64,000 nt of DNA, from assembly GCA_050946275.1 (NCBI GenBank), contig JBMNUM010000001.1, positions 92,690 through 156,689 of the forward strand, given 5' to 3'. A model generated the notes under the pieces. The model did not search any database. It worked only from the letters and a program-made list of their open reading frames with translations, and had not been told where the DNA came from. Numbering within the stretch: the first letter of the stretch is position 1; each line of letters opens with the position of its first letter. The position numbers and the translations under genes were made by a program. Source of the DNA: Coriobacteriales bacterium (lineage in GTDB: Bacteria; Actinomycetota; Coriobacteriia; Coriobacteriales; CADBOM01). Below, one piece after another: positions 2,529 to 40,859 of this stretch.

Positions 2529-3869
2529 ATGTTCGACAAGATACTCATAGCGAACAGGGGCGAGGTCGCGCTTCGCGTCATCCGCGCCGCGAAGGAGATG
2601 GGGATCGCCACGGTCGCCGTCTACTCCGAGGCCGACCGCGACACCGAGCCCGTGCGCATGGCGGATGAGGCGGTGTGCATCGGCCCCGCCCAGTCCGCGA
2701 AATCGTACCTGAACATGCAGGCGCTCATCGGCGCGGCGCAGATCACCGGTGCGCAGGCCATCCATCCCGGATACGGCTTCCTCGCCGAGAACTCCGACTT
2801 CGCGCGCGCGTGCGTCGACAACGACATCGTCTTCATCGGCCCCGATGCGGACGTCATGGACGCGCTCGGCAACAAGTCGAACGCCAAGGAGACCGCGCAG
2901 CGCGCGAACGTGCCTACCGTCCCCGGCAGCGACGGCGTCGTCGAGAGCATCGACGAGGCGCGCGCCTTCGCCGAGAAGGTCGGCTATCCGGTGCTCGTGA
3001 AGGCGAGCGCGGGCGGCGGCGGCAAGGGCATGCGCGAGGTTATGGGCCCCGACGACATGGAGAGCGCCTACACCACGGCCAAGAACGAGGCGCTCGCCGC
3101 CTTCGGCAACGACGACGTGTACATCGAGAAGCTCATCCTGCGCCCGCGCCACGTCGAGATCCAGGTGCTCGCCGACACGCACGGCAACATGATCCACCTG
3201 TGCGAGCGCGACTGCTCGATCCAGCGCCGCCATCAGAAGCTCATCGAGGAGGCTCCCTCGCCCGCGCTGACGGAGGAGCTGCGCCAGGAGATGGGCGCCA
3301 CCGCGCTGCGCATGGTCGCGGCGAGCGGCTACACGAACGCCGGCACCGTCGAGTTCCTGCTCGACGTCGACAACAGCTACTACTTCATGGAGATGAACGC
3401 CCGCGTGCAGGTCGAGCACGGCGTGTCGGAGTTCATCACCGGCATCGACATCATCAAGGAGCAGATCCGCATCGCGGCGGGGGAGGAGATGAGCTGCGCC
3501 GACCGCGCGCCCGTCTCGCCCTTCGGACATGCCATCGAGTTCCGCATCAACGCCGAGGACCCGGACAACGACTTCCGCCCGAGCCCCGGCACGATCACGA
3601 AGCTGCGCATGCCCGGCGGCCCCGGCATAAGGATCGACACCCATCTCTACGAGGGGTGCACGATCCCGCCGTACTACGATTCCATGCTGGCCAAGCTCGT
3701 CGTGTGGGGCTACACCCGCGACGAGGCCATCGACCGCGCCCGCCGCGCGCTCGACGAGTTCGAGGTGGAGGGCGTTCCCACGACCGTCTCGTTCCACCGC
3801 ACGGTCGTGGATAACCCGGCCTTCATACGCGGGGAGGTCTACACGGACTTCCTCGAGACCGAGATGTAA
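2529..3869 (+). CDS. accC: Biotin carboxylase (ATP-grasp); AccC or pyruvate carboxylase subunit A.
   Basis: 446 aa. Motifs KILIANRGEVALRVIRA, GGGGKGMR and EMNARVQVEH. Starts 2 nt after the upstream stop. Confidence 0.9.
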   Translation: MFDKILIANRGEVALRVIRAAKEMGIATVAVYSEADRDTEPVRMADEAVCIGPAQSAKSYLNMQALIGAAQITGAQAIHPGYGFLAENSDFARACVDNDIVFIGPDADVMDALGNKSNAKETAQRANVPTVPGSDGVVESIDEARAFAEKVGYPVLVKASAGGGGKGMREVMGPDDMESAYTTAKNEALAAFGNDDVYIEKLILRPRHVEIQVLADTHGNMIHLCERDCSIQRRHQKLIEEAPSPALTEELRQEMGATALRMVAASGYTNAGTVEFLLDVDNSYYFMEMNARVQVEHGVSEFITGIDIIKEQIRIAAGEEMSCADRAPVSPFGHAIEFRINAEDPDNDFRPSPGTITKLRMPGGPGIRIDTHLYEGCTIPPYYDSMLAKLVVWGYTRDEAIDRARRALDEFEVEGVPTTVSFHRTVVDNPAFIRGEVYTDFLETEM

Positions 3870-8812: not shown

Positions 8813-10460
8813 GGAACTCCACGTATCCAATCTCGCGCTCATCGAGAGCGCGACGCTCGAGTTCTCGCCCGGGCTCACGGTGCTCACCGGTGAGACGGGG
8901 ACGGGCAAGACCGCGCTTCTCGGCGCGATAAAGCTCATCATCGGCTCGCGGGCCGACGCCTCGTCGGTTCGCGACGGGCAGCGCGAGGCCGTGGTGGAGG
9001 CCCTGTTCTCCGTGAATGCCGAGCAGGAGACCGCCCTTGCCGAGCAGGGGCTCGAAGCCGCCGACGGCCAGCTGGTCGCACGGCGCCGCCTGAGTGCCGA
9101 CGGCCGCTCGCGCTGCTACCTCAACGGCGGGATGGCGACGGTCGGCGCACTCGAGGCATCCGTGGGCTCGCTCGTCGAGCTGCACGGTCAGCACGAGCAC
9201 CAGCGCCTTCTTACGCCGCGCTCGCACCGCCTGTTCCTCGACGCCTGGGGCGACGAGGCGATCTCCCCGCTGCGGGAGGGGTACGCTGCGGCGTTCGATG
9301 CCTGGCGGGTCGCATCCGATCGACTTGCCGAGGCGCGCGATTCCGCCCGGCTCACGTCCGAGAAGCTCGAGGAGGCGCGCTTCCTGTGCGCGCAAGTCGA
9401 GGCCGTCGGCCCGCAACCGGGTGAGCTCGACGAGCTCGAGGCGCGGCTGCCCATCCTGCGCGACGGCGAATCGCTTGCGCGCTCGGCAGCGGAGGCGCTT
9501 GCCATCATGCGCTCCGAGGGAGGGGCGCTCGAGCTGCTGGGAAGCGCCCGCCGCGCTCTCGCGCGCGGCGAGGGGACCGACCCGCGCCTCGATGCGCTTG
9601 GCGAGCGGCTCGAGGGCCAGCTTGCCGACATCGAGGACCTCGCGCTCGAGCTGCGCTCCTACGGCGAGCAGGTGGAATTCGACCCCGAGGCTCTCGCGGC
9701 CGCACTCGAGCGGCTCGGCCAGCTCGACGGCCTCGTGCGACGCTTCGGCCCAACATACGACGAGATGCTCTCGAGATGGGAGGAGGCGCAGCGGCTCGTC
9801 GCCCTGCACGACGACGAGGCCGGCATGCTCGGCCGGCTCGAGCGCGCAGCCGACGAGGCAGCCCGCAACCTGCAAGCCGCGGCGGCCGCGCTCGAGGATG
9901 CGCGGCGGGAGACCGCGACGGCGTTTTGCGCGGAGCTCGGCGTCCGTGTCGCCGAGCTTGCGATGACCGGCGCGTCCTTCGAGATGAGCTGCACGGAGCT
10001 CGAGATGGGCCAGTGGACGCGCGATGCGTCGTGCCGCTACGAGCTCCTCTACGCACCGGCTCCCACCGTCGCCCCGCGTCCGCTCGCGCGCATCGCGAGC
10101 GGCGGCGAGCTCTCGCGCGTCATGTTGGCGCTCGAGTGCATGGTGGACGCGGACGAGGGTGCCGTGCTCGTGTTCGACGAGGTCGATGCAGGTATCGGCG
10201 GGGCGACCGCCCGCGCCGTCGCGGATCTGATCGAACGCCTCGCGGCAACGCGCCAGGTCATCGTCGTCACGCACCTCGCCCAGATCGCGACGCGCGCCGA
10301 CGCGCATCTGCTCGTCGAGCGCCACGATGACGGGGAGACGGCGCGCACGGTGATCCGGCCCATCGATGGCGAGGAGCGCGTCGCCGAGATCGCCCGCATG
10401 CTCTCGGGATCCGTCGACGACGAGTCCCTGGCCCACGCCCGCATGATGCTCGGACGCTAA
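8805..10460 (+). CDS. recN: DNA repair protein RecN (SMC-like ATPase).
   Basis: 551 aa. Walker A GETGTGKT at the N-terminus, long coiled-coil, C-terminal ASGGELSRVMLAL signature and VLVFDEVDAGIGG Walker B. Confidence 0.92.
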   Translation: MIEELHVSNLALIESATLEFSPGLTVLTGETGTGKTALLGAIKLIIGSRADASSVRDGQREAVVEALFSVNAEQETALAEQGLEAADGQLVARRRLSADGRSRCYLNGGMATVGALEASVGSLVELHGQHEHQRLLTPRSHRLFLDAWGDEAISPLREGYAAAFDAWRVASDRLAEARDSARLTSEKLEEARFLCAQVEAVGPQPGELDELEARLPILRDGESLARSAAEALAIMRSEGGALELLGSARRALARGEGTDPRLDALGERLEGQLADIEDLALELRSYGEQVEFDPEALAAALERLGQLDGLVRRFGPTYDEMLSRWEEAQRLVALHDDEAGMLGRLERAADEAARNLQAAAAALEDARRETATAFCAELGVRVAELAMTGASFEMSCTELEMGQWTRDASCRYELLYAPAPTVAPRPLARIASGGELSRVMLALECMVDADEGAVLVFDEVDAGIGGATARAVADLIERLAATRQVIVVTHLAQIATRADAHLLVERHDDGETARTVIRPIDGEERVAEIARMLSGSVDDESLAHARMMLGR

Positions 10461-10491
10461 GCGCCACCCTGACCACCCACCGTTCGACAAA

Positions 10492-10666
10492 GGCAATCAG
10501 CAAACCCGCATTCCGGGGTTCCATGTGGGGGTTGCTGACCGCGCTTTAGGTTCAGGCAATCAGCAGGCCCGCATTTCGGTCTCCTAGGTGAGGTTTGCTG
10601 ATTGCACCTGCGCTTCGGGCAATCAGCAAACCTTCATTTCGACCCGCCAGGTGGGGTTTGCTGACC
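10492..10666. repeat. Family-B tandem hairpin repeat array, about 3 units of about 60 bp.
   Basis: Unit is GGCAATCAGCAAACCCGCATT-N13-GTGGGGTTTGCTGACCGC. CAGCAAACCC is complementary to GGGTTTGCTG, giving a 10-bp stem with a loop of about 19 nt. Three units were read directly. Confidence 0.8.
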
Positions 10667-10748
10667 TTGGCAAAGGGGTCACATGGCAAACACGTCTGGC
10701 GTGTTTGCCATGCACCTCACGCAAAGGCAAGGCACATTGGGGCTCTCT

Positions 10749-10803
10749 GGCAAAACTGCACGGAAAAGGGTGCCTGAGCTGCCCTTTTCCGTGCAGTTTT
10801 GCC
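10749..10803. terminator. Long perfect hairpin between convergent recN and murJ; candidate bidirectional terminator. It forms the 5' part of the two-copy element X.
   Basis: GGCAAAACTGCACGGAAAAGGG - tgcctgagct - CCCTTTTCCGTGCAGTTTTGCC. The stem is 22 bp. T/A-rich runs sit inside the stem arms (read as T-runs on either strand) rather than after the hairpin. Confidence 0.6.
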
Positions 10804-10924
10804 AGAATCGGGCTTGTTGGGCCGGGAACGCCACCCTTTTTCGAACGAAATTGCCGAGTCGGTCTCCGACCGTGGTTGCCACCGTGCCAGCTGACTTGTG
10901 GCCTTCGGCCACGCGCTGGTCAGA

Positions 10925-12658
10925 TTAGCCGCGGTTGCCGGCCACGCGACGGGTGAGGCGCCTGGCGAGCGAGCGGATGAGCTCCGTCTCCTGCACGCGG
11001 AAGAGCTTGGCCAGGCCGTAGAAGATGGCGAGGCCGATCAGCCCGAGCACGACGATGGAGAGGAAGGCCTGCGGAATCGTCGCAGAACTGCCGAAGTACT
11101 GGAAAAGAATGAGGACGAGGTACGCGGGTATGACCGCCGCGATGAACGAGCGGATGCCCGTCGCGAACACGCTCGGCAGGCCGTAACCGCCGACCTTCTT
11201 GCGCATGACGAAGCACAGGATGAAGAACATCACGAAGTAGTAGATCGTGTCTGCCAGGGGGATGCCCACGAGGCCGAAGCTGAGGCCCGTGGTGAACATC
11301 GCGTACATGCCGGCGTGGAAGACGCGCCCCACGGCATCGATCCAGGTGATGAGCTTGAGGTCGTGCATGGCCGAGAACGACCGGTAGAGGTACATGTATC
11401 CCGCGTAGAAGGGCAGCGACAAGCACCAATAGCGCAGCACGTCGGACACGGAGGTCACGTCATGGGCGCTGAACTCGCCCGCATGGTAGAGCGCGGTGAG
11501 CGGCTCGGCGAGGGCGAACATCAGCGCCGCGAGCGGGATGATGAGGAAGAGCGTTCCCGAGAGGCCTCCGCGCATCTTCTTGCGGAACGCGTCCCAGTTC
11601 TTCAGGGCCGCCGCGCCGCTCATCTCGGTGAGCATGGCGGTCGAGAGCGCCACGCCGATCACGCCGTAGGGGAACTGGTACCACAACCAGGCGTATGTCA
11701 GCGTCGAGGGGCCGTTGGGCGCCACGCCGAGCGAGAAAGCGTTGCGGAAGCTCACGACGATGAGGTTGACGACGACGAACACCGTCGCGGGCAGGGCGAT
11801 GCGCAGGGTCTCGCGCAGCGCCGGGTCGTGGAAGTCGATGTGCAGGCTGAGCTTGACGCCGTGCTTGCGCAGCGCCGGGATCTGCACGGCCATCATCGCG
11901 ACGACGCCGAGCGACGTTCCCACCGCCAGCACGACCTTGGCAAGCTCGGGGTCGCTCTTGTTGATGAACACGTACGAGAACATCGTGATGATGACCACGA
12001 TGTTGTTGAACACCGGCCCGAGCGACGGCCACAGGAAGTGCTTGTGGCCGTTGAGGATGCCCGATATGATGCCGCCCATCCCGTAGAACACGATCTGGAT
12101 CGCGAAGAAGCGGAAGAAGAAGATGGCCTGCGCCACGTCGGCGGGGTTCTCGGACATGAACGTCTGCGTGAACACGACCTGCGGTGCGAACACGGTGGCG
12201 AGGAGCGCGATGATGGCCAGCGCGATGGCGGCCAGGCACATCAGGTTCGAGGCGTATTTGTTCGCACCGTCGTTGCCCCGGGTCTTGAGCGTCGAGACGA
12301 ACACCGGGAGGAAGGCCGTCGTGATGATGCCGCCCGCGACGAGCTCGAAGAGCATGTTGGGGATGTTGTTGGCGACCTGGTAGGCCGACGCGAGGACGGT
12401 GTTTCCCAGGGCGAACGCGCACGCCCACGTGCGGATGAACCCGGTGATGCGCGAGAGCATCGTAGCCATCGACATGGTGATGGTCGACCTGACCACGCCG
12501 GCGACGTCGTCGTCCACCTCGCCGTCTGCCCCGACGATCTCGGATTCCCCGGCGGTGACCTCGGTGCCGGAATCGTCGGTCTCGGCTATGGCGACGGGAT
12601 CCGCGGTATCGTGCGCGCGCGGCTCCTCGAGGGATTCTGTTTCGTTTTCGCGTTGCAT
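10925..12658 (-). CDS. murJ: Lipid II flippase MurJ (MviN family).
   Basis: Polytopic membrane protein with MurJ-like N-terminal segments (SMATMLSRITGFIRTWACAFALGNTVLASAYQVANNIPNMLFELVAGG). Start chosen at MQRENE (ATG at 12658). The ORF track extends to 12814, but that upstream part crosses the palindromic promoter region. Confidence 0.85.
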   Translation of the reverse strand: MQRENETESLEEPRAHDTADPVAIAETDDSGTEVTAGESEIVGADGEVDDDVAGVVRSTITMSMATMLSRITGFIRTWACAFALGNTVLASAYQVANNIPNMLFELVAGGIITTAFLPVFVSTLKTRGNDGANKYASNLMCLAAIALAIIALLATVFAPQVVFTQTFMSENPADVAQAIFFFRFFAIQIVFYGMGGIISGILNGHKHFLWPSLGPVFNNIVVIITMFSYVFINKSDPELAKVVLAVGTSLGVVAMMAVQIPALRKHGVKLSLHIDFHDPALRETLRIALPATVFVVVNLIVVSFRNAFSLGVAPNGPSTLTYAWLWYQFPYGVIGVALSTAMLTEMSGAAALKNWDAFRKKMRGGLSGTLFLIIPLAALMFALAEPLTALYHAGEFSAHDVTSVSDVLRYWCLSLPFYAGYMYLYRSFSAMHDLKLITWIDAVGRVFHAGMYAMFTTGLSFGLVGIPLADTIYYFVMFFILCFVMRKKVGGYGLPSVFATGIRSFIAAVIPAYLVLILFQYFGSSATIPQAFLSIVVLGLIGLAIFYGLAKLFRVQETELIRSLARRLTRRVAGNRG

Positions 12659-12737
12659 TTGGTTTCCCGACCGCCTTTCGGATGCTTTCACGATGATAAC
12701 AAAGGGAAAACGCGCCGATGCCGATGAATAGCCCGTG

Positions 12738-12814
12738 TGGAACGCTCCCCGGGGGAGCGTTCCAACTGTTAACCGGCTGCAACTTGTGGAACGTTCCCCC
12801 GGGGAGCGTTCCAC
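12738..12814. promoter_or_regulatory. Two copies of a 27-29 bp palindrome, TGGAACGCTCCCC-G-GGGGAGCGTTCCA, centred 49 bp apart in the murJ / zinc-ribbon-operon divergent intergenic region.
   Basis: 12738-12764 is a perfect palindrome. 12786-12814 has one mismatch. A TATAAT hexamer at 12843-12848 lies downstream, toward the plus-strand operon. Confidence 0.6.
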
Positions 12815-12886
12815 TTCGCGCCCGCATTGCTCTCCATCTCGCTATAATCGTTGCAGGAAACACGGGTCGACGCGCGAGGAGGTGCC

Positions 12887-14497
12887 ATGAAGTGCCCGCA
12901 TTGCGGAGCTGAGCAGAGCAGCCATCTGAAGATGTGCTCCCAGTGCGGTTCGCCGCTTCTCGCGGGTTCTCCCGATGAGACGCTGCTCGTTCCCGAGGAC
13001 GTCTCCCAGGACGCGCTGCTCTCGGCCATCGCCGCACGGCTCGACGGCCGGGACGGCGACATCACGCTCGTGGCCCCCGACGCCGATGCGACGGTCGCGT
13101 GGTCCGAGGGCCGCCCCGGCGACCCGCTCGACCCGACGCTGTCGGACATGAACATCCCGTATTCCGCGGAGCACGCGGTCGATAGCGGCCGCGACGCGGC
13201 GATCGCGAGCCTCGACGATCCGACGGCTGGCGAGGACCAGTCGAAGTTCGCGGCCAAGTATTCCCGCTACGGGCACGGCAAGGAGGGCGAGCCGATCCCC
13301 GGCTCCACCATCGACAGCAGCGAGCCGACGGTCGCCGAGGTCGCGGCAGCCGCGGCGGTCGCGGCCGTCAAGGGGAGGAGCCGCCGTCGCTCGATCGGCA
13401 TCATGCTCGTCGTGATCATCCTGCTCGCCGGCATCGTCGCAGGCGGTGTCGCCTACTACATGCTCAACCAGCGGCAGGCCGCCGAGACGACCGGCGGAAC
13501 CCCCATCGTCTTCCGCCTCAACATCCCCGACTACCGCGAGGGCGCGGCGAGCCCCGTCCCCGTCCGTGTCGAGGGCAAGACGACCGAGGGGAGCGCCGTT
13601 TCGGACATCTTCTGCATAACGCCCTCCGACAACACGGTCGAGCTGCAGCCCGGCACGTACACGGTCACCGCCGCGGGTAGCCCCGTGACTGCGGACGGCA
13701 CCATCTACCAGTACCCGACCATCCCGAACAAGGTCACCGTCACCGCCACGACCGTGCGCGTCGATGAGGTCGCGACCGATGGCATCTCCTACGCGTACAC
13801 GGCGATCCTGCCCGAATACGTGACCGACGAGCAGATCCAGGCCATCGTCGCGTGGATGTCGCAGGCCGGCATCTCCGACGATGTCGCGATTCCCTACCGC
13901 GATGCGATCATCGCCTCGCGCCAGGCGCGCCTCGAGAAGCTCGCCGCCGACGCCGCGGCTCGCGAGCAGGCCGCCGAGGAGCAGGGACAGCAGGGATCCG
14001 AGTATGTGCCGCAGTTCGACGACCAGGGCCAGGCGGATGCGGCGTCGGGCTACTACATCGAGAACGATTTCGCCTACCTCGCCATCCCCGACTCGTGGGC
14101 GACGAGCGTCGAGTTCAACACCGAGAGCACGGGTGGCGAGGAGCTGCTCCGCATCTACCTGTACGGCAACCCGCAGCTGCCCATCATGTACGTCCGCAAG
14201 GTCGTGGAGGGGGAGGAGTCGTCCGCCACGTTCGACGACGATTCGGTCGACGCGGACATGGTCGAGGTCTGGCGCACCGAGCGCGATGGTGCCGTGTACA
14301 CCGTCGAGGCGTGCGAGTGGCCGTACCAGTTCAGCCAGAACCCCGGTTACCTCGGCCTATCGGAGGACCAGCGCAACCAGCTCGTGAGCGTCTCGACGGG
14401 CGGATCGCTCACGTATGCGGATGCCGCCTCGGCCGATGCGCATGCGGTCGAGTCCTTCCTGGAGGCCAACGTGATCCCGACGCTCGTCGTCAGGTAG
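12887..14497 (+). CDS. Zinc-ribbon (CxxC-N10-CxxC) single-pass membrane protein with a large extracytoplasmic domain; function unknown.
   Basis: MKCPHCGAEQSSHLKMCSQCG at the N-terminus, after SD GAGGAGG. TM segment IGIMLVVIILLAGIVAGGVAYYML. Paralogous to the product of 15589-17388. Confidence 0.8.
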   Translation: MKCPHCGAEQSSHLKMCSQCGSPLLAGSPDETLLVPEDVSQDALLSAIAARLDGRDGDITLVAPDADATVAWSEGRPGDPLDPTLSDMNIPYSAEHAVDSGRDAAIASLDDPTAGEDQSKFAAKYSRYGHGKEGEPIPGSTIDSSEPTVAEVAAAAAVAAVKGRSRRRSIGIMLVVIILLAGIVAGGVAYYMLNQRQAAETTGGTPIVFRLNIPDYREGAASPVPVRVEGKTTEGSAVSDIFCITPSDNTVELQPGTYTVTAAGSPVTADGTIYQYPTIPNKVTVTATTVRVDEVATDGISYAYTAILPEYVTDEQIQAIVAWMSQAGISDDVAIPYRDAIIASRQARLEKLAADAAAREQAAEEQGQQGSEYVPQFDDQGQADAASGYYIENDFAYLAIPDSWATSVEFNTESTGGEELLRIYLYGNPQLPIMYVRKVVEGEESSATFDDDSVDADMVEVWRTERDGAVYTVEACEWPYQFSQNPGYLGLSEDQRNQLVSVSTGGSLTYADAASADAHAVESFLEANVIPTLVVR

Positions 14498-14501
14498 ACC
14501 C

Positions 14502-15476
14502 ATGTCGTCCGCGCGCCGCTCCACCGGCACCATCATCGGATCCGCCGTCGCCTTCCTCGTCGTTGTCGCCGCCATCTGCGTCTTCGGCTGGCTGTCCGTG
14601 CGGCTGTCGGACATCCCGGTCCGCCATGCATGGCTCGCGGCCACGGAAGCGACCGACCAGGTCGACTTCCTGGAGGCGAACGGGGGCAAGGCCCCTTACG
14701 AGGGACGGTACCGCTACCAGCAGCTCGACGAGGAGGGGAGGCGCCTGTACGAGGCGATCTACCGCAACCTCTACTTCATGCGCGGCGACGCGTTCATCTA
14801 CGGAGCCGACGCCGACGATGCGCTCGACACGTACTTCGACCTCTGGTACGACTCGCCTGAGATCTTCTACACGGCCGACAACGCCTCGGCGACGGAGAGC
14901 TCGGTCGAGACCCGCTTCGGCACGGGCCATCTCGAGACGCTCGTCCACTTCCACTACCTTTACGAGCGCGACCAGATCCCGGCCGTCGCAGAGCAGCTCG
15001 AGGGCGAGGTCGCGGCCATCATGGCCGGCGTGGGCGACGGCTGGAGCGAGGAGGAGAAGGCCGCGTACTTCCACGACGTGCTCATCGAGCGAGCCGACTA
15101 CTCCTACGATTCGGAGCGGGTCGCCACCACGCAGCCCGAGTTCTTCGAGAGCAGCACGGTGGCCGGTCCGCTGCTGCGCGGAGAGGCGATCTGCGGGGGC
15201 TACACGCAGGCACTCGAGCTCCTGTGCCGTCGGGCCGGTATCGACTGCTTCACGGTGATCGGCCGCGTCGACGAGGAGGAGGACCCCGAGACCATGCACG
15301 CCTGGAACGCCCTGAACATCGACGGCTCGTGGACGAACGTCGACACCACATGGGACGAGGCGCTCTCGCAGGCGGGCATGCCGTTCGAGTACCTGTTCGT
15401 GACCGGTGCCGAGCTGCTCGAGTCGGGCCACCACGCCAACGACAACGAGGTGCTCCCCGATGCCTGCCGCACCTAG
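14502..15476 (+). CDS. Membrane-anchored transglutaminase-like (papain-fold Cys-His-Asp) protein.
   Basis: N-terminal TM IIGSAVAFLVVVAAICVFGWL. The core reads GEAICGGYTQALELLCRRAGI...HAWNALNIDGSWTNVDTTWD. ATG lies 5 nt after the upstream stop. Confidence 0.8.
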   Translation: MSSARRSTGTIIGSAVAFLVVVAAICVFGWLSVRLSDIPVRHAWLAATEATDQVDFLEANGGKAPYEGRYRYQQLDEEGRRLYEAIYRNLYFMRGDAFIYGADADDALDTYFDLWYDSPEIFYTADNASATESSVETRFGTGHLETLVHFHYLYERDQIPAVAEQLEGEVAAIMAGVGDGWSEEEKAAYFHDVLIERADYSYDSERVATTQPEFFESSTVAGPLLRGEAICGGYTQALELLCRRAGIDCFTVIGRVDEEEDPETMHAWNALNIDGSWTNVDTTWDEALSQAGMPFEYLFVTGAELLESGHHANDNEVLPDACRT

Positions 15477-15588
15477 CGGGGTGGGCTGCTTGTCGCCGGC
15501 AGCCTGTCGTGCAACTCCAGACGGGGTATAATGGCATCTTGAACGCAAACGAAACGTAGCTTAGTCGCAGCCGAACGGAGGTGCCGCT

Positions 15589-17388
15589 TTGATCTGCAAA
15601 GCGTGCGGAGCCGAACTTGATCGCGATTCCGAGGTGTGCCCGTCGTGCGGCGCGCCGATTCCCCAGCCTGTCGACGAGCCCGAGCCGTCCCTCGAGGACG
15701 AGCCGGGGGAGGACCTCGATGAGGAGTTGGGCGCCGACGAGTCCGATGATGCGCTGGACGAGGGCGAAGGCGAGCCCGAGGCCGACCTCGACGAAGAACC
15801 CGATGCCGACGCGACCGTCGTGTACGCACCGGATGGTGACGAGACCGTCGTGATCGGAGGCGACGGAGTCGATCCCGGCGATACCGCGCTCCTCGGCAAC
15901 GCCGATGCGACCGCCGTGTTCGGCGAGGCCGCTCCCGGGGATGACGACGAGGTGGTCGAGTACGTGCGCCAGGGCTTCGCCACCTTCATGCCCATCGAGC
16001 AGGGCTCGGACGAGGGCATCGACGTCGACCCCGACGAGCTGACCGTCCTCGAGCCCATCGCCATGCGCGACCTCGACGAGGACGAGGCCGCCACCACGGC
16101 CATCGGCCCCGCGTACCAGATGGAATCGGAGGCTCCCAAGAGCCGTCGCGGTCTCAAGATCTTCCTCGCCGTGTTCATCATCCTGCTCGTCGCCGCGGGA
16201 GCCGCGTGCGGCATAGGCTACTACAAGTACAAGGACCGCGTCGCGCACGAGGACGTCGCGGTGCACGTCGTGATGGAGGTGCCGGGTTACCCGGCGGGCG
16301 ACGATTCGTCCACCATTCCCGTGCGTGTCGCCGGCATGGACCTCGATGGCAACAACATCGACGAGCGCATGTACTTCGAGGAGACGTCCGGCGATATCGA
16401 GCTCAAGCGCGGCGAGTATCAGATCTCCGCTGTGGGCACGCCCGTCACGGGCGAGGGAACCATCTACCGCTATCCGAAGCGCTCCGCGAGCATCGTGGTC
16501 GACGAGACCGGCGTGCATGCTGCCGGTGCCGGTTCGGGTGGCGCCGAAGAGGGCGAGGACACCGAGGAGGCCGAGCCGGTCCAGCAGTCCGACGACGGCG
16601 CGGACTCCGGCGCGACGTTCATGGGCGAGAAGGTGCATCTCACCTATGAGCAGATCGCTCCCGAGCGCATCTCGGATGCCATGATCGACGACGCGGTCGC
16701 GTGGATGGCCGACTCCGAGGTCGATGCGCCCAAGGCCGAGACGTTCAGGGCCGCCATCACGAAGGCGCGCGACGCTCGCCTCAAGCAGATGGAGGAGGAG
16801 AAGAAGGCCCTCGAGAAGCAGCGCCGCGAGGAGGAGCTGAAGTCCGCGCTCGCCGGCAACCCCGCCAAGGTCGACTCGGCGTCGCGCGAGTGGGCGTTCA
16901 CCGGCGTCGTCGTGGAGTTCAACGTCGAGCACGAGGTCGACGGCGAGATGCGCTACTACAAGCAGTATGCGCTCGAGATTCCCGAGGAGGCGGAGTTCGA
17001 CCTCGTCAGCAAGGATGACGCGAAGAAGCTCGAGGAGCAGAAGAAGGCCGCCGAGGAAGATGACGGCGAGGGGGACGACGCTGCGGCGGACGAGAAGGAC
17101 GAAGCCGCCGAAGACGGCGATGCCGCTGCCGAGGACGAGGATGCGGCCGACGAGCCCGACCTCGTCGACCCGGTGAAGTCGACGAAGATCATCATGCTCT
17201 CGTCGGTGAGCTCGGGCTCGAGCGATACCATCGCCGCCAGCCCCTGGGCCGAGTACGTCGGCAAGACCGTGACGGTCAAGGGCAAGCTCTCGCAGTCGAT
17301 CGCGGACACTCCCGAAAACGAGCATTCCCAGATCCACTTCGCCGACGACGCCAGGATGATAAAAGACTTCGGCGTGATCGAGGAGTAG
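15589..17388 (+). CDS. Zinc-ribbon single-pass membrane protein, paralog of 12887-14497, with long acidic low-complexity tracts.
   Basis: TTG start after GGAGG. MICKACGAELDRDSEVCPSCG. TM GLKIFLAVFIILLVAAGAACGIGYY. Shared blocks with the paralog: IPVRV(A/E)G; (I/V)EL(K/Q)(R/P)G(E/T)Y...G(T/S)PVT(G/A)(E/D)GTIY(R/Q)YP; (D/A)(A/I)VAWM. Confidence 0.8.
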   Translation: MICKACGAELDRDSEVCPSCGAPIPQPVDEPEPSLEDEPGEDLDEELGADESDDALDEGEGEPEADLDEEPDADATVVYAPDGDETVVIGGDGVDPGDTALLGNADATAVFGEAAPGDDDEVVEYVRQGFATFMPIEQGSDEGIDVDPDELTVLEPIAMRDLDEDEAATTAIGPAYQMESEAPKSRRGLKIFLAVFIILLVAAGAACGIGYYKYKDRVAHEDVAVHVVMEVPGYPAGDDSSTIPVRVAGMDLDGNNIDERMYFEETSGDIELKRGEYQISAVGTPVTGEGTIYRYPKRSASIVVDETGVHAAGAGSGGAEEGEDTEEAEPVQQSDDGADSGATFMGEKVHLTYEQIAPERISDAMIDDAVAWMADSEVDAPKAETFRAAITKARDARLKQMEEEKKALEKQRREEELKSALAGNPAKVDSASREWAFTGVVVEFNVEHEVDGEMRYYKQYALEIPEEAEFDLVSKDDAKKLEEQKKAAEEDDGEGDDAAADEKDEAAEDGDAAAEDEDAADEPDLVDPVKSTKIIMLSSVSSGSSDTIAASPWAEYVGKTVTVKGKLSQSIADTPENEHSQIHFADDARMIKDFGVIEE

Positions 17389-17390
17389 TT

Positions 17391-17420
17391 GTTCCGAGCG
17401 TTCTTAGCCGAACGCTCGGA
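17391..17420 (+). terminator. Hairpin immediately after the zinc-ribbon operon.
   Basis: TTCCGAGCGTTC-ttagcc-GAACGCTCGGAA. The stem is a perfect 12 bp and begins 3 nt after the stop. No clear U-tract follows. Confidence 0.45.
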
Positions 17421-17684
17421 AACACTCGACGCTGCGCGGGCCCACAGCATGCCGCCTTGCCGTTCAACAAGAACCTCGCGGGCATAAGCCCGGCGAGAAC
17501 CTTGTTTCGCGGCAATTCGGCGCACTGTGGGCCCGCTCGCTGTCTCTGCGAACGATTCCGGGCTCGCCGGAGGTTGCCTCTCTCGGCCGCTCGACGCGGC
17601 TATCGCACTCGGCAGCCGGCCTCTCGCTGACGTTACTAACAATCCCGGGCTCGTTTTGGTTGCGGCGATCGGGTTTTTGTCTCA

Positions 17685-18692
17685 TTACCTGCGTGGGCGG
17701 AGGCGGGCTCGGGGATGGCACGTGAGGTACTCGTCGCGCACGTGTGCGCGGTCGACGTGCGTGTAGATCTGCGTGGTGGAGATGTCGCTGTGGCCGAGTA
17801 TCTCCTGGATCGAGCGCAGGTCGGCACCGCCCTCGAGCATGTGCGTCGCGAAGGAGTGGCGCAGCGTGTGGGGGTGCAGGTCCTCGAGCCCGACGCTCTC
17901 CCCGGCTGCGCGCACGATGTTGAAGACGGCCTGCCGTGTGATGCGCCTGCCGCGGGCGTTGAGGAACACGGCGTTCGCATCGGCCGGACCCGTCACGCCC
18001 TTGGGGTGCAACAGCAGCCTGCCGCGCTCGAGGTAGGTGGTGAGAGCGGAGAGCGCCGTTCCGCCGATGGGGACCACGCGCTCCTTCGACCCCTTTCCGA
18101 ACACCTGGATGAACTCCTCGTCGAGGAAGAGGCGCTGCATGTCGAGTCCGACGAGCTCCGACACGCGGATGCCGCAACCGTACAGCAGCTCGAGGATCGC
18201 CTTGTCGCGCATGCCGCGCGGGTCGTCGGGGAACGACTGGTCGAGCAGCGACGAGATCTCGGCGATGCTGATGGTGCGGGGGAGGCGTTGGGGCTTGCGG
18301 GGGAGGGGAACTGTCGACGACGGGTCGGTCGGGGCGAAGCGCTCCGCGACGCAGAACCGGTGGAACCGCTTGATCGCCGACAGCGCGCGTTCGAGCGAGG
18401 TCGGCGCATAGCCGCAGTCGCTCAGGGCCGCGAGGTATGCCGTGACGTGCTTGCGCGTCGCGTCGCGGACGTCGTGGACGCCGGAGCTGTCGAGGTACGC
18501 GCAGTAGCGGCGAACGTCGCGCAGGTAGCCGTCGAGCGTGTTGCCCGAGGCGCCGCGTTCCAGCGAAAGGTACGCGGAGAACTCCCCGAAGGGCTCCTCG
18601 AACCCGAAGGGCAGGTCGTCGGAGAAGTACGCCTCGTCGCCCTTGGCGGTGTTTCCACGCGCATGCGCGCTATGTGCGTCATCGGCTTTCAT
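17685..18692 (-). CDS. xerD: Site-specific tyrosine recombinase, XerC/XerD family.
   Basis: N-terminal SAM-like domain ([27 protein letters not shown]). Catalytic C-terminus has [39 protein letters not shown]. The start is uncertain: ATG 18692, ATG 18710, or the ORF-track start 18809. Confidence 0.8.
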
Positions 18693-18969
18693 GCCGCAGC
18701 TGTCTCCCATCGAGTCCGCCCGCGCCAACGTTGGCCGCGGGTTCCGTGTTCGCGCCCGCCGGGCCACTGGCTGTCCGCGAACCCACGCGCCGTCTCCGAC
18801 CCGGTGCACTTGCGCCCGCGGCCCACTGGCTGCCCGCCGACCCGCGCGTCGTGCTCTTGCAACCGCCGATTTGCGACGGATATCAACTGCCTCGAGTATA
18901 GCCGAATGGGTTTCGCGAGAATCAAACGGCTATGCCATGGATGCAGGTGCGCCCATCGATATCCTGCTG

Positions 18970-19227
18970 CCCCAAAGTGCGGGGATGTCGAAAACCAGAC
19001 CCGCCTTGCAAGGAAAACTCCCTCCCGTGTCCCAAAATGCGGGGATGTCGAAAGCGCGACGTTCCGGATTGTTCGACATCCCCGCATTTTCGGGCAAGAT
19101 TTTTCGACAACCCCGCATTTTCGGACACGTGGGAGGGATCCGCTTTCGACAACCCCGCATTTTGGGACAGGCGGGCCGCGAAAACGTGCACGGGCGTCTT
19201 CTTTTTCGACATCCCCGCATTTAGGGG
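18970..19227. repeat. Family-A nested-palindrome element, copy 2 (forward-forward-reverse x4).
   Basis: By manual alignment, about 90% identical to the reverse complement of 49744-50010. Half-sites lie at about 18970, 19029 (forward) and 19070, 19101, 19144, 19203 (reverse). Confidence 0.85.
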
Positions 19228-19316
19228 CGCCCATGCCGTGGCCGTCGGCCGCGATGGACCCGGGTTCCCGGCGCCCGCCGGCTGCGCGCGGGCGAAGAAT
19301 CGCGTGTTCGGGCCCA

Positions 19317-19524
19317 GGTGGGGTTTGCTGACCGCCCTTGCGCCAACCGCAATCAGCAAACCCGCATTTGGAGCCGCCATGTGGGGTTTGCTGACCGCGC
19401 TAGCGGCAACGGCAATCAGCAAACCCGCATTTGGACCTCCGGTGTGGGGCTTGCTGACCGCTCTTGCGCTTCCGGCAATCAGCAAACCCGCATTCCGGGC
19501 AGCGGTGTGGGGTTTGCTGACCGC
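19317..19524. repeat. Family-B tandem hairpin repeat array, about 3.5 units of 62-63 bp, directly abutting family-A copy 2.
   Basis: GTGGGGTTTGCTGACCGC-N15-GCAATCAGCAAACCCGCATT-N13 is repeated. Read directly. Confidence 0.85.
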
Positions 19525-19640
19525 TCTTGCGGTCTGCGCTCTGGCGGGTCGAAGCGCGCCGCGTCCCTCCAACCCCTCTTCCCATATATTGTGTGCGAAC
19601 ATGCGTTCTCTACTATATGCGGAAATCAGCCCAAATGCGC

Positions 19641-36505: not shown

Positions 36506-36517
36506 CCGGCGAAGAAC

Positions 36518-36542
36518 GAGTCAAAGGACTGTCCTTTGACTC
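36518..36542. terminator. Perfect 25-nt palindrome between convergent nnrD and the lipoprotein gene.
   Basis: GAGTCAAAGGAC-T-GTCCTTTGACTC, followed by ATTGTGG on the plus strand. Confidence 0.5.
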
Positions 36543-36587
36543 ATTGTGGCCGCATTACGGTTGGAAGCTTGTCTGCATCAAACGCTG

Positions 36588-38516
36588 CTACAAGATGTGC
36601 TTGTGGTTCTTCATCCATGAATACGTCTTCATGAAGTACGTGGTCTTGGCCTTCTTGGTCTTGGAGGCGTCCCAGGTGGTGTCGACGTAGTAGGTCTTGC
36701 CCTTGATGACGATCTTGTTCCACGCGTGCTCGTTGGCACGGCCCTTCGGCGTGGTCTTGCCCACGACGACCGTGCAGCTCAGGCCGACCTTGTTGCACAT
36801 GTCGCGGTAGAGCGTCGCGTAGCCGAGGCAGCGCGAGGACTTCTTCACGGCCGCGGCGTACGTGGTCCAGGAGAGGTCGGAGACGGGCTTGTAGTCGTAG
36901 CGGACGTTGGTGGCGATCCAATCGTGGATGTACCTCGCACGCTTGACCGGGTCCTTGATCCTCTTGGCCTTCTTGATGACGTTTTGCTGGACCTTGTTCT
37001 GCTGGGCCACCATCTTGGTGATGGTCGGCTTGTTGAAGGTGTAGCGGAAGAAGAGGCTCTTGGCCGGCGTCTGGGTCTTCGTCGTGGTGACCTTGCCCGT
37101 GACGGGGTCGATGGTCCTTCTCGTCGTCCGCAGCGCATCCGAGTAGACGAGCTTGACGTTTTGCGTGTAGCTGTCCGTGTACCTCTTGGGGGACTGCCCG
37201 CCCTGCCACAGCTGGTATGCCTTCTGGAGCGTGTCGTAGGAGAAGCAGAACCTCTCGACATCGACCCTCGCGGAGCACGCGCGGGCCACGTTGGTCATGA
37301 CCTGCACGGCCTTGTTGGGGTTGTTGTAGCGCGAGGTGACGTTGGAGAACGCGAATATCTGGGACTTGCCGCCGTTTTCGGCCCATAGCTGGACGTTGGT
37401 CTTGTTGGCGGTATTGCCGCCCTTGACGTCGATGGCCAGCTCATCGACGTCATATGCCTTGGTGTAGATGGGGACGATCTCGTAGTCCTTGCCGCTCCTC
37501 TGGATGATGAACTTCTGGGCGTTGGAGCCGTTTTGCTGGTAGAGGACGATGTTCGTGCCGTTCTTCGTGCCCGTGGCGTTGGCATGGAGGGCGAGGTTGC
37601 TCTTCATGTTGATGATCGTGTAGAGACCGCGCTCGTCGACCTTGAAATACCATGCCTGGGCATCGGAGTTGTTGGACTGGTGGATCTGGACGTTCGTGCC
37701 GTTCTTGACGCCGCCGCCGGCGGCCTCGAGCACCTTGCCCGTCGCGCAGTAGAGCCTGATGATGTAGACACCCGATTTGACGGGGGCGGCGTACACGCGC
37801 TCGGACACGTCGTATGCGGCCTGTCGCCTGGCCTCGGCTTCCGCCTCAGCCTTGGCCTTCGCCTCGGCCTCTGCGCGGGCCTTCGCCTCAGCTTCCACCC
37901 GCGCGGCCGCCTCTGCCTCTGCCCTTGCCTTCGCCTCCGCCTCCGCTGCGGCCTGAGCCTCGGCCTCGGCCGCTGCCTGCGCCTCCGCCTCGGCCAGCGC
38001 CGCCGCCTCGGCCTCGGCTGCCGCCGCGGCGTCCGCCTCGGCCTGGGCGGGATCGACCTCGCCCGCCACCTCGGCGTTCTCTGCGACGGTGTCATCGGTG
38101 CTCTGCGCCGTCTCGTCGCTGGCGGTCTGCGCATCGGCATCCTGCTGCTCGGGCACGGGCGTCTCGGCGGCCTGGCCCTCGTCAGGCGTCTCGGCGGGAG
38201 GAGTCGTCTCGGCGAGCTGGGTCTCGCCCGACGGGGTGGTCTCCGCAGGTGCCTCCGCACCTTCCTGGCTGGGCGGCCAGGGAGCGGGTTGCTGCTCGGT
38301 GGACTCGTCCTGGTCCGTGGTTCCCTCGAGATCGCCCGCGAGGGGCACGGAATCGTCCGTGATGGTGTCGGACGGCTGCTCCTGGGTGGCGCCGGGTCCG
38401 GGTGCGGGCTTCTCGGCGCTCGGAGCGCATGCGGTTGCGAGGAATGCGATATAGGCGACGCACAGGGCGGCGACGATCGCGGTGATGAGCCGTTTTCTCG
38501 TTTTAGCCCTTCTCAT
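36588..38516 (-). CDS. Predicted lipoprotein. Domains in order: disordered acidic region, Glu/Ala/Lys-rich helical repeat, ricin-type beta-trefoil lectin, transglutaminase-like domain.
   Basis: Signal peptide plus lipobox-like AFLATAC. (AEAEA[KQA]A[RA])n tract. QxW-type trefoil repeats (SDAQAWYF, SNAQKFII, GKSQIFAF). C-terminal SSRCLGYATLYRDMCNKVGL...HAWNKIVIKGKTYYVDTTWD. Confidence 0.8.
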   Translation of the reverse strand: MRRAKTRKRLITAIVAALCVAYIAFLATACAPSAEKPAPGPGATQEQPSDTITDDSVPLAGDLEGTTDQDESTEQQPAPWPPSQEGAEAPAETTPSGETQLAETTPPAETPDEGQAAETPVPEQQDADAQTASDETAQSTDDTVAENAEVAGEVDPAQAEADAAAAAEAEAAALAEAEAQAAAEAEAQAAAEAEAKARAEAEAAARVEAEAKARAEAEAKAKAEAEAEARRQAAYDVSERVYAAPVKSGVYIIRLYCATGKVLEAAGGGVKNGTNVQIHQSNNSDAQAWYFKVDERGLYTIINMKSNLALHANATGTKNGTNIVLYQQNGSNAQKFIIQRSGKDYEIVPIYTKAYDVDELAIDVKGGNTANKTNVQLWAENGGKSQIFAFSNVTSRYNNPNKAVQVMTNVARACSARVDVERFCFSYDTLQKAYQLWQGGQSPKRYTDSYTQNVKLVYSDALRTTRRTIDPVTGKVTTTKTQTPAKSLFFRYTFNKPTITKMVAQQNKVQQNVIKKAKRIKDPVKRARYIHDWIATNVRYDYKPVSDLSWTTYAAAVKKSSRCLGYATLYRDMCNKVGLSCTVVVGKTTPKGRANEHAWNKIVIKGKTYYVDTTWDASKTKKAKTTYFMKTYSWMKNHKHIL

Positions 38517-38696
38517 CGTCGTCCGTCCTCTCCGTCCGTGGTCGTGAAGGCAATATGTCTTGCGGCCAGGATGACTTCAGGGATGTCAACGTCTGCCTAC
38601 CATACGTATAGGCTATTTTACAACGTCATACAAACGCTTAGCGAAATTGGTTGGTTTGCGAGGATATTGGTCGTGGCGTGGCAGCGGTTGCCGGCC

Positions 38697-39137
38697 CTAA
38701 TCGTCGAAGTTCCAGAGGAACGTGCCCGTCTCGGCATCGCGCCTGCCGGTTATGGTCCCGCCCTGCACGGGGCGCAGGACGATCTCGGCCGTGTAGAGGA
38801 AGGTCGTCGCCTTGACGTGCCCGCCGATCATGCGGTGCTCGCCCTGCTCGACGTAGGAGAACTGCGCATGCGCGTGCTGGTGCATCTCGTTGCCATCGCC
38901 GGCGAACACGCTTCCGGTGATGGAGACCATCTCGAGCATGCCCTCGATGCGCTCGGTCCGGAAAGCCTGCTCGACGGGGTCGAAGACGGCGACCTCGACG
39001 CTGCTGCAGCCGCCGATGCCCGTATATGTCGCGCACGCGACGTTCTCCTCGCGGCAGATACGCAGGATTGACGAGAGGACCTCGTCCCCGCGGTCCATGC
39101 GGATGTAGTATGCGTCTCCCAGCTTGCGGTAGTCCAT
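38697..39137 (-). CDS. PPC (DUF296) domain protein.
   Basis: 146 aa from ATG 39137, after SD GAGGGGG. MDYRKLGDAYYIRMDRGDEVLSSILRICREENV...LEMVSITGSV...HAHAQF...GGHV pattern is typical of the bacterial PPC/DUF296 fold family. The ORF-track upstream extension is judged non-coding. Confidence 0.7.
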   Translation of the reverse strand: MDYRKLGDAYYIRMDRGDEVLSSILRICREENVACATYTGIGGCSSVEVAVFDPVEQAFRTERIEGMLEMVSITGSVFAGDGNEMHQHAHAQFSYVEQGEHRMIGGHVKATTFLYTAEIVLRPVQGGTITGRRDAETGTFLWNFDD

Positions 39138-39334
39138 GCGGAGCCCCCTCGCGTGTAGATGCCGTGCACGAGTCCATGGTACCGCATGGCGGAACGGGAG
39201 GGGGGCTGCCGATCGAGGTGGCGCCTCGGCCGGGATGCGCGATGTCCGCGACCTTTGGGACCCCAAATCGACCAATTCCGCAGCCGTCGACTCATCGGGC
39301 GGCAAGCTCATACAATTGCAACATGAGCAAATCC

Positions 39335-39359
39335 GGAACGCTCCCCGGGGGAGTGTTCC
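39335..39359. promoter_or_regulatory. Third copy of the GGAACGCTCCCC-G-GGGGAG(T/C)GTTCC palindrome.
   Basis: One mismatch. It lies between a TACAAT hexamer (39311-39316) and the SD AGGGGGG / ATG 39380 of the surface-protein gene, in the intergenic region divergent from the PPC gene. Confidence 0.55.
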
Positions 39360-39379
39360 ACGTTAGGGGGGTGGACGAT

Positions 39380-40489
39380 ATGACGAGAAGAACGAGCGTA
39401 TCCGGAAGGGCCGTTTCCCTTCTCGCCTCTGTTGCGCTGATGACGTCCATCGCCTTCCCGATTTCCGCTTATGCGGCCGATGGGGCCGAGGGCGCGGAGC
39501 AGGTTGCCCAGGGCATCGAGGCACCGGCCGCCGGGGACGTGACCTCCACGGATGCCGGCGCTGATGTTGCCGCGGGGAACGTGGTCGTGGACTCCGATGC
39601 CGTGGCTCCTGCGAATCCGGCGGCAACCCCCGCTGCGCCTGCAAGCGCCGTGGCTGACACCGAGATGGCGGGCATCGACGGTCCTTCGGCTGCGCCGATC
39701 CCCGATGCAGCCGTTGACGATGCGTCCGCTCCCGCGGTTGTCGATGACGTACGCGCCTCCCAGCCTGCAGCGCAGGACGTCGTCCGGGGATTTGCCCCCA
39801 TGGCGGCCGCAACCGTGAGCAGCGGCACGGGCGACGCGGGCCAGGGCACCCCATCCGAGGGTGCCGCCCAGACGTACTACTTCGCATTCGCCGATGCCAA
39901 GGGCAACGTTATCCTGGGCACGGACGGCAAGCCCCTGATCCAGAGCATCACGGTCGTCGATGGCGTCGCGCAGGGCAGCGAGGTCCTCGCGTCCGTCAAG
40001 GGCGCCGCCGAGATCTGGGAAGTCGATGCGAACGGGAACAGGCTCGCCGAGGGCACGCCGTTCGGCAAGATGATCATCGCCGAGGTCGCCGCGCTCCTCA
40101 CCGGCGCCGATGATGTCGAGCCGGGTGCCCCCACCCGCGTCATCAGCTCGCTCATGGTGGTCTCCGAGACCACCGACGCCGCGCCGCCCGCCTACGACGA
40201 TCCGGCCCCCGCGGCTCCGACCAGGTCCGCGGCGGTCTGGTCCACCCCGGCTGCATACGCTAGCCCCGTGGGAGCTTCGGCGACTACCGTCTCCGCCACA
40301 TCGCCGACCACCGCCCCGACGGTCGCCGAGGTCATCGACGACGCGGCGAACCCGCTCGCATCGGGCGTCCCCGCCGAATCGAACATGACCCATGCGGCCT
40401 GGTCCTACTGGCTGATCGTTCTCGGCATCCTGGCCGTGGCGATTCTCGCCGTCACCGTGATCCTGCCCAAGCGGCGCAGGGAGCAGTAG
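39380..40489 (+). CDS. Secreted Ala/Pro-rich protein with a C-terminal membrane anchor; function unknown.
   Basis: Signal peptide MTRRTSVSGRAVSLLASVALMTSIAFPISAYA. Low-complexity A/P/D/V region. Small central folded segment. C-terminal TM WLIVLGILAVAILAVTVIL followed by PKRRREQ. Confidence 0.7.
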   Translation: MTRRTSVSGRAVSLLASVALMTSIAFPISAYAADGAEGAEQVAQGIEAPAAGDVTSTDAGADVAAGNVVVDSDAVAPANPAATPAAPASAVADTEMAGIDGPSAAPIPDAAVDDASAPAVVDDVRASQPAAQDVVRGFAPMAAATVSSGTGDAGQGTPSEGAAQTYYFAFADAKGNVILGTDGKPLIQSITVVDGVAQGSEVLASVKGAAEIWEVDANGNRLAEGTPFGKMIIAEVAALLTGADDVEPGAPTRVISSLMVVSETTDAAPPAYDDPAPAAPTRSAAVWSTPAAYASPVGASATTVSATSPTTAPTVAEVIDDAANPLASGVPAESNMTHAAWSYWLIVLGILAVAILAVTVILPKRRREQ

Positions 40490-40746
40490 GGTCGGGTATG
40501 CCGGGCGTGCTCGCGGCGTGGCCCCACCTGCCCAGTTACTAGGGCCTTGGCGGCGCAATGCCCCGACACGCGTGCATCGCTCGCTTGCCAGTCGGCGCCT
40601 GCGCCGGCACACCTACACCGCTCGTTTACCGGGCGCAGCTCGCGTCGGCGCACGCGCATCGTGCATGTTCCGGACGGCACGTCGACGACAGCTTGGCAAC
40701 TTCGTTCGAAAAAGAGCGTCTCATCCGGGTCAAATGGCTCGATTCT

Positions 40747-40801
40747 GGCAATTCCTAACGAAAAAGGGCGTGTGAAACGCCCTTTTTCGTTAGGAATTGC
40801 C
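40747..40801. terminator. Long perfect hairpin between the convergent surface-protein and MFS genes; second copy of the element X hairpin.
   Basis: GGCAATTCCTAACGAAAAAGGGCGT-gtgaa-ACGCCCTTTTTCGTTAGGAATTGCC. The stem is 25 bp, with T-runs inside the arms on both strands. Confidence 0.6.
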
Positions 40802-40859
40802 AAGAGGTCGCCATGCTGGAGCATCCCTGGCACGGCGGTGTCGGGTCGGGAGAGGACCC

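Follow-up and report, generated by a model that had tools for sequence, protein, structure and literature searches.

Two copies of a GC-rich palindrome lie in the gap between murJ, the gene of a lipid II flippase, and a divergently oriented zinc-ribbon operon of a Coriobacteriales bacterium, and a third copy lies in a second divergent gap of the same stretch of DNA. Are these the binding sites of a regulator, or are they copies of a dispersed repeat? The original prediction had put forward the operator of a dimeric regulator of surface or envelope genes and, as an alternative, a REP-like hairpin family. We analyzed the whole 64-kb stretch (here referred to as the window) together with the corresponding loci of relatives. 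The feature is real and non-random. Of the two readings, the dispersed repeat is favoured over the operator, with moderate confidence.

Sequence and symmetry of the palindromes

By reading the sequence and by a degenerate pattern search of the window, we found three near-identical GC-rich palindromes of 27–29 bp in two promoter-bearing gaps. Copy 1 (12738–12764) is a perfect 13+1+13 palindrome, TGGAACGCTCCCC-G-GGGGAGCGTTCCA, whose core at 12739–12763 is GGAACGCTCCCCGGGGGAGCGTTCC and whose left flank extends to GTGGAAC. Copy 2 (12786–12814) has the form 14+1+14, GTGGAACGTTCCCC-C-GGGGAGCGTTCCAC, with one T.G mismatch on the plus strand and the core GGAACGTTCCCCCGGGGAGCGTTCC at 12788–12812. Copy 3 is a singlet (39335–39359), where the match GGAACGCTCCCCGGGGGAGTGTTCC can be written as GGAACGCTCCCC-G-GGGGAGTGTTCC with one G.T mismatch on the plus strand; its right end runs on to ...GTTCCAC and its left outer bases are degenerate. 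The perfect palindrome, the one-mismatch palindrome at a distance of 49 bp (centre to centre) and the third copy had all been predicted, and all were confirmed at these positions. The motif common to the three is GTGGAACG[C/T]TCCCC-N-GGGGAG[C/T]GTTCCAC. As a consensus it is a 29-bp dyad, GTGGAACGCTCCCC-S-GGGGAGCGTTCCAC, with the search form GTGGAACGYTCCCC-N-GGGGARCGTTCCAC, and degeneracy is limited to two of its six half-sites, at the outermost one or two positions.

The motif had no match in 100 dinucleotide-preserving shuffles, against three in the real window, and by simple arithmetic on the base composition (65.8% GC), a 64-kb stretch should contain about 0.003 perfect 13+1+13 palindromes by chance. 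The copies agree with one another at 24–25 of 25 positions, including the central C/G tract, and the similarity stops where the palindrome ends, with flank agreement of at most 10/20 in any orientation. No target-site duplications were found around the three copies. Moreover, the 64-kb window contains no decayed copies, no variant-spacing forms and no isolated conserved half-site pairs; the half-site matches at 20602 and 53777 are single arms. The spacer between copies 1 and 2 (12765–12785; 21 bp, ACTGTTAACCGGCTGCAACTT) is non-palindromic and has no counterpart at copy 3.

The centre base is the sole asymmetric position, and it is G, C and G in copies 1, 2 and 3, respectively. This is compatible with copy 2 being inverted relative to copy 1, an orientation that can be read from the centre base only, because each unit is itself palindromic. 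Since the 49 bp between the two centres correspond to 4.7 helical turns, copies 1 and 2 are out of phase. Both stem mismatches are G.T on the plus strand, and both downstream genes (starting at 12887 and 39380) are also on the plus strand. Folded as single-stranded DNA, copy 1 gives -14.7 kcal/mol (z = -5.1), copy 2 gives -12.9 kcal/mol and copy 3 gives -10.2 kcal/mol, while copies 1 and 2 can pair into one hairpin with a 28-bp stem of -38.9 kcal/mol (z = -9.3).

The same palindromes are present in contigs L002 and L017, which come from the same sample but were assembled independently by Logan. In that assembly (SRR31066337), the end of L017 and the start of L002 break on palindrome 1, at 12739–12766 of the window; the two contigs overlap by 28 nt, and only the two 31-mers spanning the whole of palindrome 1 are missing. 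We considered this breakpoint as a sign of multiple copies and rejected it, as the shared sequence is shorter than k = 31 and is uninformative on copy number. A likelier cause of the break is the hairpin, through its effect on coverage or assembly. Another palindrome of the window, at 48115–48143, lies inside a DUF167 gene, and relatives have a palindrome at the matching place.

The two loci and their counterparts in relatives

The window, part of the MAG of an uncultured Coriobacteriales bacterium (locus tag ACOYIP_00485), is core chromosome. It contains recN, murJ, an xerD-like gene, mraZ-rsmH-ftsL-PBP-mur genes-ftsQ and ftsZ-sepF-divIVA, as well as the RNase P RNA, tRNAs and an FHA/PP2C/RodA-PBP/PknB cluster. 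Within this cluster, a single ORF of 912 aa (56557–59292) has FtsW/RodA/SpoVE, PBP dimerisation and transpeptidase domains and is an apparent SEDS-bPBP fusion. When about 55 proteins of the window were compared with Pfam, no helix-turn-helix regulator, transposase, RAYT or IS200/IS605 gene was found, and mraZ is the only gene for a DNA-binding regulator in these 64 kb.

Pfam bore out the flanking genes that had been named for the first locus. murJ occupies 10925–12658 on the minus strand (PF03023, 6e-79), with its ATG at 12658. It is divergent from the zinc-ribbon operon (12887–17388, plus strand), which encodes a zinc-ribbon/TM protein of 536 aa, a Transglut_core protein of 324 aa and a paralogous zinc-ribbon/TM protein of 599 aa. 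The operon has a TATAAT -10 at 12843–12848 on the plus strand (CGCTATAAT), kept in a sister species; it had been described as lacking a convincing -35, and we found no -35 for it either. The predicted extended -10 of murJ is at 12693–12701 on the minus strand (TGTTATCAT; sister form TGCTATCAT, TGnTATCAT). With the predicted TSS set about 7 nt past each -10, the centres of copies 2 and 1 fall at about -55 and -104 of the predicted operon promoter (TSS at about 12855); for murJ, the centres of copies 1 and 2 fall at about -65 and -114, as judged from the consensus elements. The palindromes of this locus are probably outside the transcripts, because both conserved -10s lie outside them and point away.

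We then turn to the sister species, which is represented by four contigs from four independent samples (L004, L014, L015 and L016) with the same gene order. The zinc-ribbon operon is syntenic there, and the sister contig is collinear with the window at 76–87% nucleotide identity (blastn). MurJ relatives are found at 80–81% identity, the sister-species MurJ being at about 81%, and the zinc-ribbon protein has one detectable relative, with 72% identity. The sister gap between murJ and the zinc-ribbon operon is 194 bp long and almost identical in the four samples. Alignment to the window showed that the murJ leader, the murJ extended -10, CGCTATAAT and the zinc-ribbon RBS and start are kept. The palindrome is absent from this syntenic gap in all four samples. 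For about 100 bp between the conserved promoter parts, the sister sequence is unrelated to that of the window, and because the sister samples also differ from one another there, this central stretch appears to be a weakly constrained spacer between divergent core promoters. In place of the palindromes, L004 has three short ATGCCGG/CCGGCAT half-site-like elements (3440–3475), one of which is mutated in L014; these elements are probably non-functional.

The search was further extended to other DNA. No palindrome copy with up to 6/25 mismatches is present in about 115 kb of relatives' loci, which include 21.7 kb syntenic with window positions 500–23700 and three ftsZ regions. An exact scan for GGAACGNTCCCCNGGGGANNGTTCC in GTDB species representatives, JGI metagenomes and IMG/VR gave no true copy, a null result that is no measure of the copy number in the source genome. 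Were the rest of the source MAG among the scanned GTDB genomes with only the window masked, the null result would imply that it has no more exact copies, and this would count against a large family. The sole matches of the scan fall within one coding sequence, that of a diacylglycerol kinase, in an Acidiferrales MAG and again in a metagenome contig. Plasmid and phage collections likewise gave no true palindrome copy, and the palindrome sequence strings retrieved only unrelated eukaryotic primers and constructs from the full-text literature.

At the second locus, copy 3 is flanked by a PCC-domain gene on the minus strand and by a plus-strand gene with its ATG at 39380. The product of the latter is an Ala/Pro-rich protein of 369 aa with a signal peptide and a C-terminal TM anchor, for which an exact-product look-up returned no record. 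Copy 3 ends 21 bp before this ATG and 5 nt before a G-rich RBS. The sole promoter-like site at the locus is TCGACT-18-TACAAT (39287–39316, plus strand), the predicted promoter of the 39380 gene (one site found, 0.0 expected in shuffles), relative to which copy 3 spans about +12 to +37 and is centred at about +24. Because there is no room for a -10 between copy 3 and the RBS, the palindrome is almost certainly within the leader of the 39380 mRNA. The longest ORF of the PCC-domain gene, 38697–39311 (204 aa), has a 58-residue N-terminus that is rich in Arg, Pro and Ser and seemingly non-coding. Its true start is likely to be the ATG at 39137, which has a GAGGGGG RBS, and with this start the gap around copy 3 is 242 bp.

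Copy 3 is carried by a 6-kb, four-gene island (36588–42245) between a Carb_kinase gene and ftsZ, in the dcw cluster. The island genes encode a RicinB+Transglut_core protein (RicinB-lectin/TolA-like/transglutaminase-core; minus strand), the PCC-domain protein (minus), the secreted/anchored 369-aa protein (plus) and an MFS sugar transporter (minus). The island is missing in the relatives L005, L009 and L011; the Carb_kinase gene is followed directly by ftsZ in the former two and by other genes in L011. No foreign composition is evident for 36588–42245. Transglutaminase-core proteins are thus encoded at both loci, distantly related to each other. Relative to the predicted promoters, the palindromes stand at about -55/-104 at the first locus and at about +24 at the second, so that the two loci do not appear to have a common operator geometry.

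Intergenic repeat gain and the competing explanations

Three gaps of the window are much longer than their counterparts in the collinear sister contig L014. The gap 10444–10925 is 482 bp here and 71 bp there, 17354–17690 is 337 bp here and 82 bp there, and 18697–19583 is 887 bp here and 84 bp there. The extra DNA consists mostly of repeats and hairpins. The divergent xerD/mraZ spacer is one of the expanded gaps, which shows that repeat gain in this genome does not spare divergent promoter regions.

At least two abundant repeat families are found among the intergenic stretches. First, a 63-bp unit, GGCAATCAGCAAACCCGCATTnnGG...GTGGGGTTTGCTGACCGC, with an internal imperfect hairpin, occurs as 15 units in tandem arrays at five intergenic places, all in plus orientation (10491–10666, 19253–19592, 48713–49115, 49486–49762 and 49996–50029). 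It is far commoner in the window than the GGAACG palindrome, and neither IMG/VR nor about 115 kb of relatives' DNA contains it. Second, a 24-mer, TCGACAWCCCCGCATTTTSGG (family TCGACAWCCCCGCATTTT; degenerate form TCGACA[A/T]CCCCGCATTTT[C/G]GG), has 17 matches with at most 3 mismatches, in both orientations. They are gathered into blocks of about 255 bp at 42–329, 18968–19222 and 49744–49998, with about six copies per locus; the blocks are 60–80% alike, and two of them adjoin 63-bp arrays. The 24-mer is absent from the same 115 kb or so of relatives' DNA. Both families are similar to the palindrome in being intergenic only, hairpin-forming, present at several places per 64 kb and missing at the orthologous sister positions. 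They differ from it in that they are longer, have far more units (15 and 17), form arrays or clusters and are not perfect palindromes, and they have no sequence in common with it.

Several other hairpins were also recorded in the window. Very long perfect hairpins at 10746–10806 and 40746–40802, with arms of 25 bp and 26–28 bp, lie in gaps between convergent genes, recN/murJ in one case and the 39380 gene/MFS transporter in the other. Long perfect hairpins of this kind, too, are missing from the relatives' DNA. A palindrome with 15-bp arms, CATGGCAAACACGTC-T-GGCGTGTTTGCCATG, is at 10682–10712. These three are probably bidirectional terminators or further repeat elements. Related palindromes with 15–17-bp arms, AATGAGTCnnnGGAC-N-GTCCnnnGACTCATT, are at 36515–36545, just downstream of the Carb_kinase gene, and at 61236–61270, just downstream of the PASTA kinase gene, and this pair makes up a small terminator-like hairpin family.

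The explanation that we prefer, to which we give about an even chance, is that the three sites are copies of a young, recently spread and lineage-specific short palindromic repeat with REP-like behaviour. Because the palindromes are absent from the same gap of the sister species, they look more like a young dispersed repeat than like a conserved site of regulation. Under this explanation the palindrome would have settled in intergenic stretches that tolerate insertion: at the first locus the fast-evolving spacer between divergent core promoters, and at the second the leader of an island gene. It may have been spread in trans by an enzyme that recognises hairpins on single-stranded DNA, as RAYT or IS200/IS605-type transposases do. 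The doublet 12738–12814 could then be a REPIN-like unit with copy 3 as a singlet, and any effects on murJ, the zinc-ribbon operon or the 39380 gene, for example through a 5'-UTR hairpin in the 39380 mRNA, would be incidental.

The evidence for a dispersed repeat includes the near-identity at every position including the centre, the boundaries exactly at the palindrome ends, the absence from the orthologous site though the core promoters are kept, the potential to form hairpins, and the lack of copies in relatives. Moreover, the predicted promoter geometry differs between the loci, copy 3 sits in an island that relatives lack, the genome is gaining lineage-specific hairpin repeats, and the window has no regulator besides mraZ. 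Against it, there are only three copies at two loci in the 64-kb window, without decayed copies; high copy number, of dozens to hundreds per genome, is typical of REP/REPIN. The sequence is a perfect palindrome with a one-base centre and without a GTAG/CGTC tag, and neither a RAYT nor an IS200/IS605 gene is present in the window. The two loci are also both divergent gaps with promoters. This last argument from location is weak, because there are two loci only and divergent gaps make up about 1.8 of the about 5.8 kb of intergenic DNA in the window, or about 31% by our tally.

The orthologous-promoter check, which had been named beforehand, thus found no palindrome in the sister gap and weakened the proposed operator of an envelope-gene regulator. 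The REP-like hairpin family fits better, as lineage-specific intergenic repeats abound in this genome; the GTAG/CGTC tag and the location bias of REPs are the parts of it that did not hold. The sister species is fairly distant (76–87% nucleotide identity), and loss or gain of an operator is therefore also possible.

The most serious rival, which we regard as possible and as the weaker of the two, is that an operator has newly evolved here: a lineage-specific dimeric or tetrameric transcription factor would bind the dyad GTGGAACGCTCCCC-N-GGGGAGCGTTCCAC. The pair at the first locus would serve as upstream activator or looping sites, and copy 3 at about +24 would repress the surface-protein gene, so that the murJ/zinc-ribbon-transglutaminase locus and the newly acquired surface-protein island in dcw would form one small envelope regulon. 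The exact dyad symmetry with its one-base centre agrees with this, as does the presence of three of three copies in promoter-bearing divergent gaps. The sites of the first locus are upstream of both predicted TSSs and probably untranscribed, and both loci encode surface or envelope proteins, including the transglutaminase-core proteins. Neither a copy at a gene 3' end nor a decayed copy is present in the 64 kb, and a small, species-specific regulon would also agree with the null scans of public collections. A precedent exists in CIRCE/HrcA operators, which are long, near-invariant palindromes in 5' leaders, commonly near +24. However, the sites are missing from the sister promoter region although the operon and both core promoters are kept, and mraZ is the sole regulator gene of the window; MraZ recognises direct GTGGG-type repeats. 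Every position including the central tract is conserved, which is more than an HTH dimer normally specifies. The out-of-phase spacing of 4.7 turns, the different placement at the two loci relative to the predicted promoters and the rampant gain of non-regulatory repeats in this genome also count against an operator.

Two regulators encoded at the loci themselves were considered and rejected. The zinc-ribbon membrane proteins as NrdR-like autoregulators were discarded because the same proteins occur in the sister species without the palindromes. For the PCC-domain protein, the N-terminal extension is seemingly non-coding and the 39137 start has a good RBS; we are aware of no report of DNA binding by bacterial PCC domains.

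An element acting at the RNA level is improbable. Here the palindrome would be a transcribed stem-loop that either stabilises a 5' UTR or modulates translation, or else serves as a factor-independent terminator or insulator. Copy 3 suits this, as it follows the predicted promoter of the 39380 gene and precedes the RBS, and both stem mismatches are G.U-compatible on the plus strand, the strand of both downstream genes. However, G.T in two of two mismatches is a one-in-four chance, and at the first locus the -10s point away from the palindromes, so that probably no transcript covers them. There is no T-run after any copy, and a terminator scan found none. Rfam 15 gave no match in the palindrome region at the gathering threshold, and at a permissive threshold only sub-threshold, generic hairpin matches of the miRNA-precursor kind.

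Other DNA-transaction sites are still more improbable, and we give them very little weight: a recombinase or Xer-type site, a ParB/Noc-like loading site, a CRISPR-like remnant or a bidirectional ECF-type promoter has no supporting genes in the 64-kb window. An XerD-like gene lies about 5 kb off, but it is kept in the sister species without the palindromes, and both an Xer/dif site and an MraZ box were dismissed on their wrong architecture, mraZ too being present in the sister species. In its GGAAC...CGTT content the palindrome is reminiscent of ECF -35/-10 motifs; such a bidirectional promoter was rejected because the spacing from AAC to CGT is 14 nt here, against the about 16–17 nt that ECF sigma factors require. 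The 29-bp length and the GTTCCCC...GGGGA core superficially resemble type I-E CRISPR repeats, but a 21-bp spacer and an array of two units only are unlike CRISPR. The palindrome is unrelated to the parS or NBS consensus. A sigma-54 promoter with enhancer sites was also tried, and no GG-N10-GC element was found.

Meaning and comparison with known systems

If the palindrome is a dispersed repeat, the result is mainly descriptive: the lineage would have had a burst of intergenic repeat gain, comprising the palindrome and the two larger families, none of which is present in the sister-species stretches compared. It would also extend REP-like hairpin repeats to the class Coriobacteriia, from which, to our knowledge, none has been described. 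For regulon prediction it would be a caution that perfect dyads in promoter regions need not be operators. Should it prove to be an operator, the regulation of murJ and of surface-protein genes beside the cell-division cluster would have been rewired very recently, and this would be a clean example. Either reading alters current understanding little.

Compared with known operators, the palindrome is similar to CIRCE/HrcA and to tandem NrdR boxes, which are also near-invariant dyads of about 27 bp, sometimes in tandem, in promoter or leader position. The known operators keep their sequence across genera but vary in the central spacer, whereas the palindrome is conserved at its centre and absent from the sister orthologous promoter and from all other genomes scanned. 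Unlike them, it also has no cognate regulator identified in the 64-kb window.

Compared with REPs, several departures are seen. REP units carry a conserved GTAG (or CGTC) tetranucleotide at one end (PMC3733652), whereas the three copies end in GTGG.../...CCAC, TGG.../...CCAA and CCGG.../...CCAC without such a tag. A REP is a stem-loop with a loop and bulges, and the sequence here is a perfect palindrome with a single base at its centre. Most REPs are found where the neighbouring ORFs are unidirectional or convergent, that is, in transcribed regions (PMC3733652), while both palindrome loci are divergent gaps, a weak departure with n = 2. A genome with REP/REPIN elements has a cognate RAYT gene, often with the repeats on its flanks; the 64-kb window has three palindrome copies, and no RAYT gene was seen among its scanned proteins. 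The host belongs to Coriobacteriia, and the main text of the REP survey nowhere mentions Actinobacteria (PMC3733652). On the other hand, there are likenesses. The palindrome is short (27–29 bp, within the class of 20–40 bp) and GC-rich, and three of three copies are extragenic. REPINs consist of two inverted units that fold into a larger hairpin (PMC3116915); here a close doublet that can fold into one long hairpin occurs together with a more degenerate singlet (PMC3116915, PMC3733652), and an inverted orientation of its two units would be marked by the centre base only. G.T pairs in the stems, lineage restriction and coexistence with other repeat families are also shared (PMC3116915, PMC3733652). 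By this analogy, the closest known behaviour appears to be that of REP/REPIN, of which the palindrome is a candidate rather than a demonstrated member.
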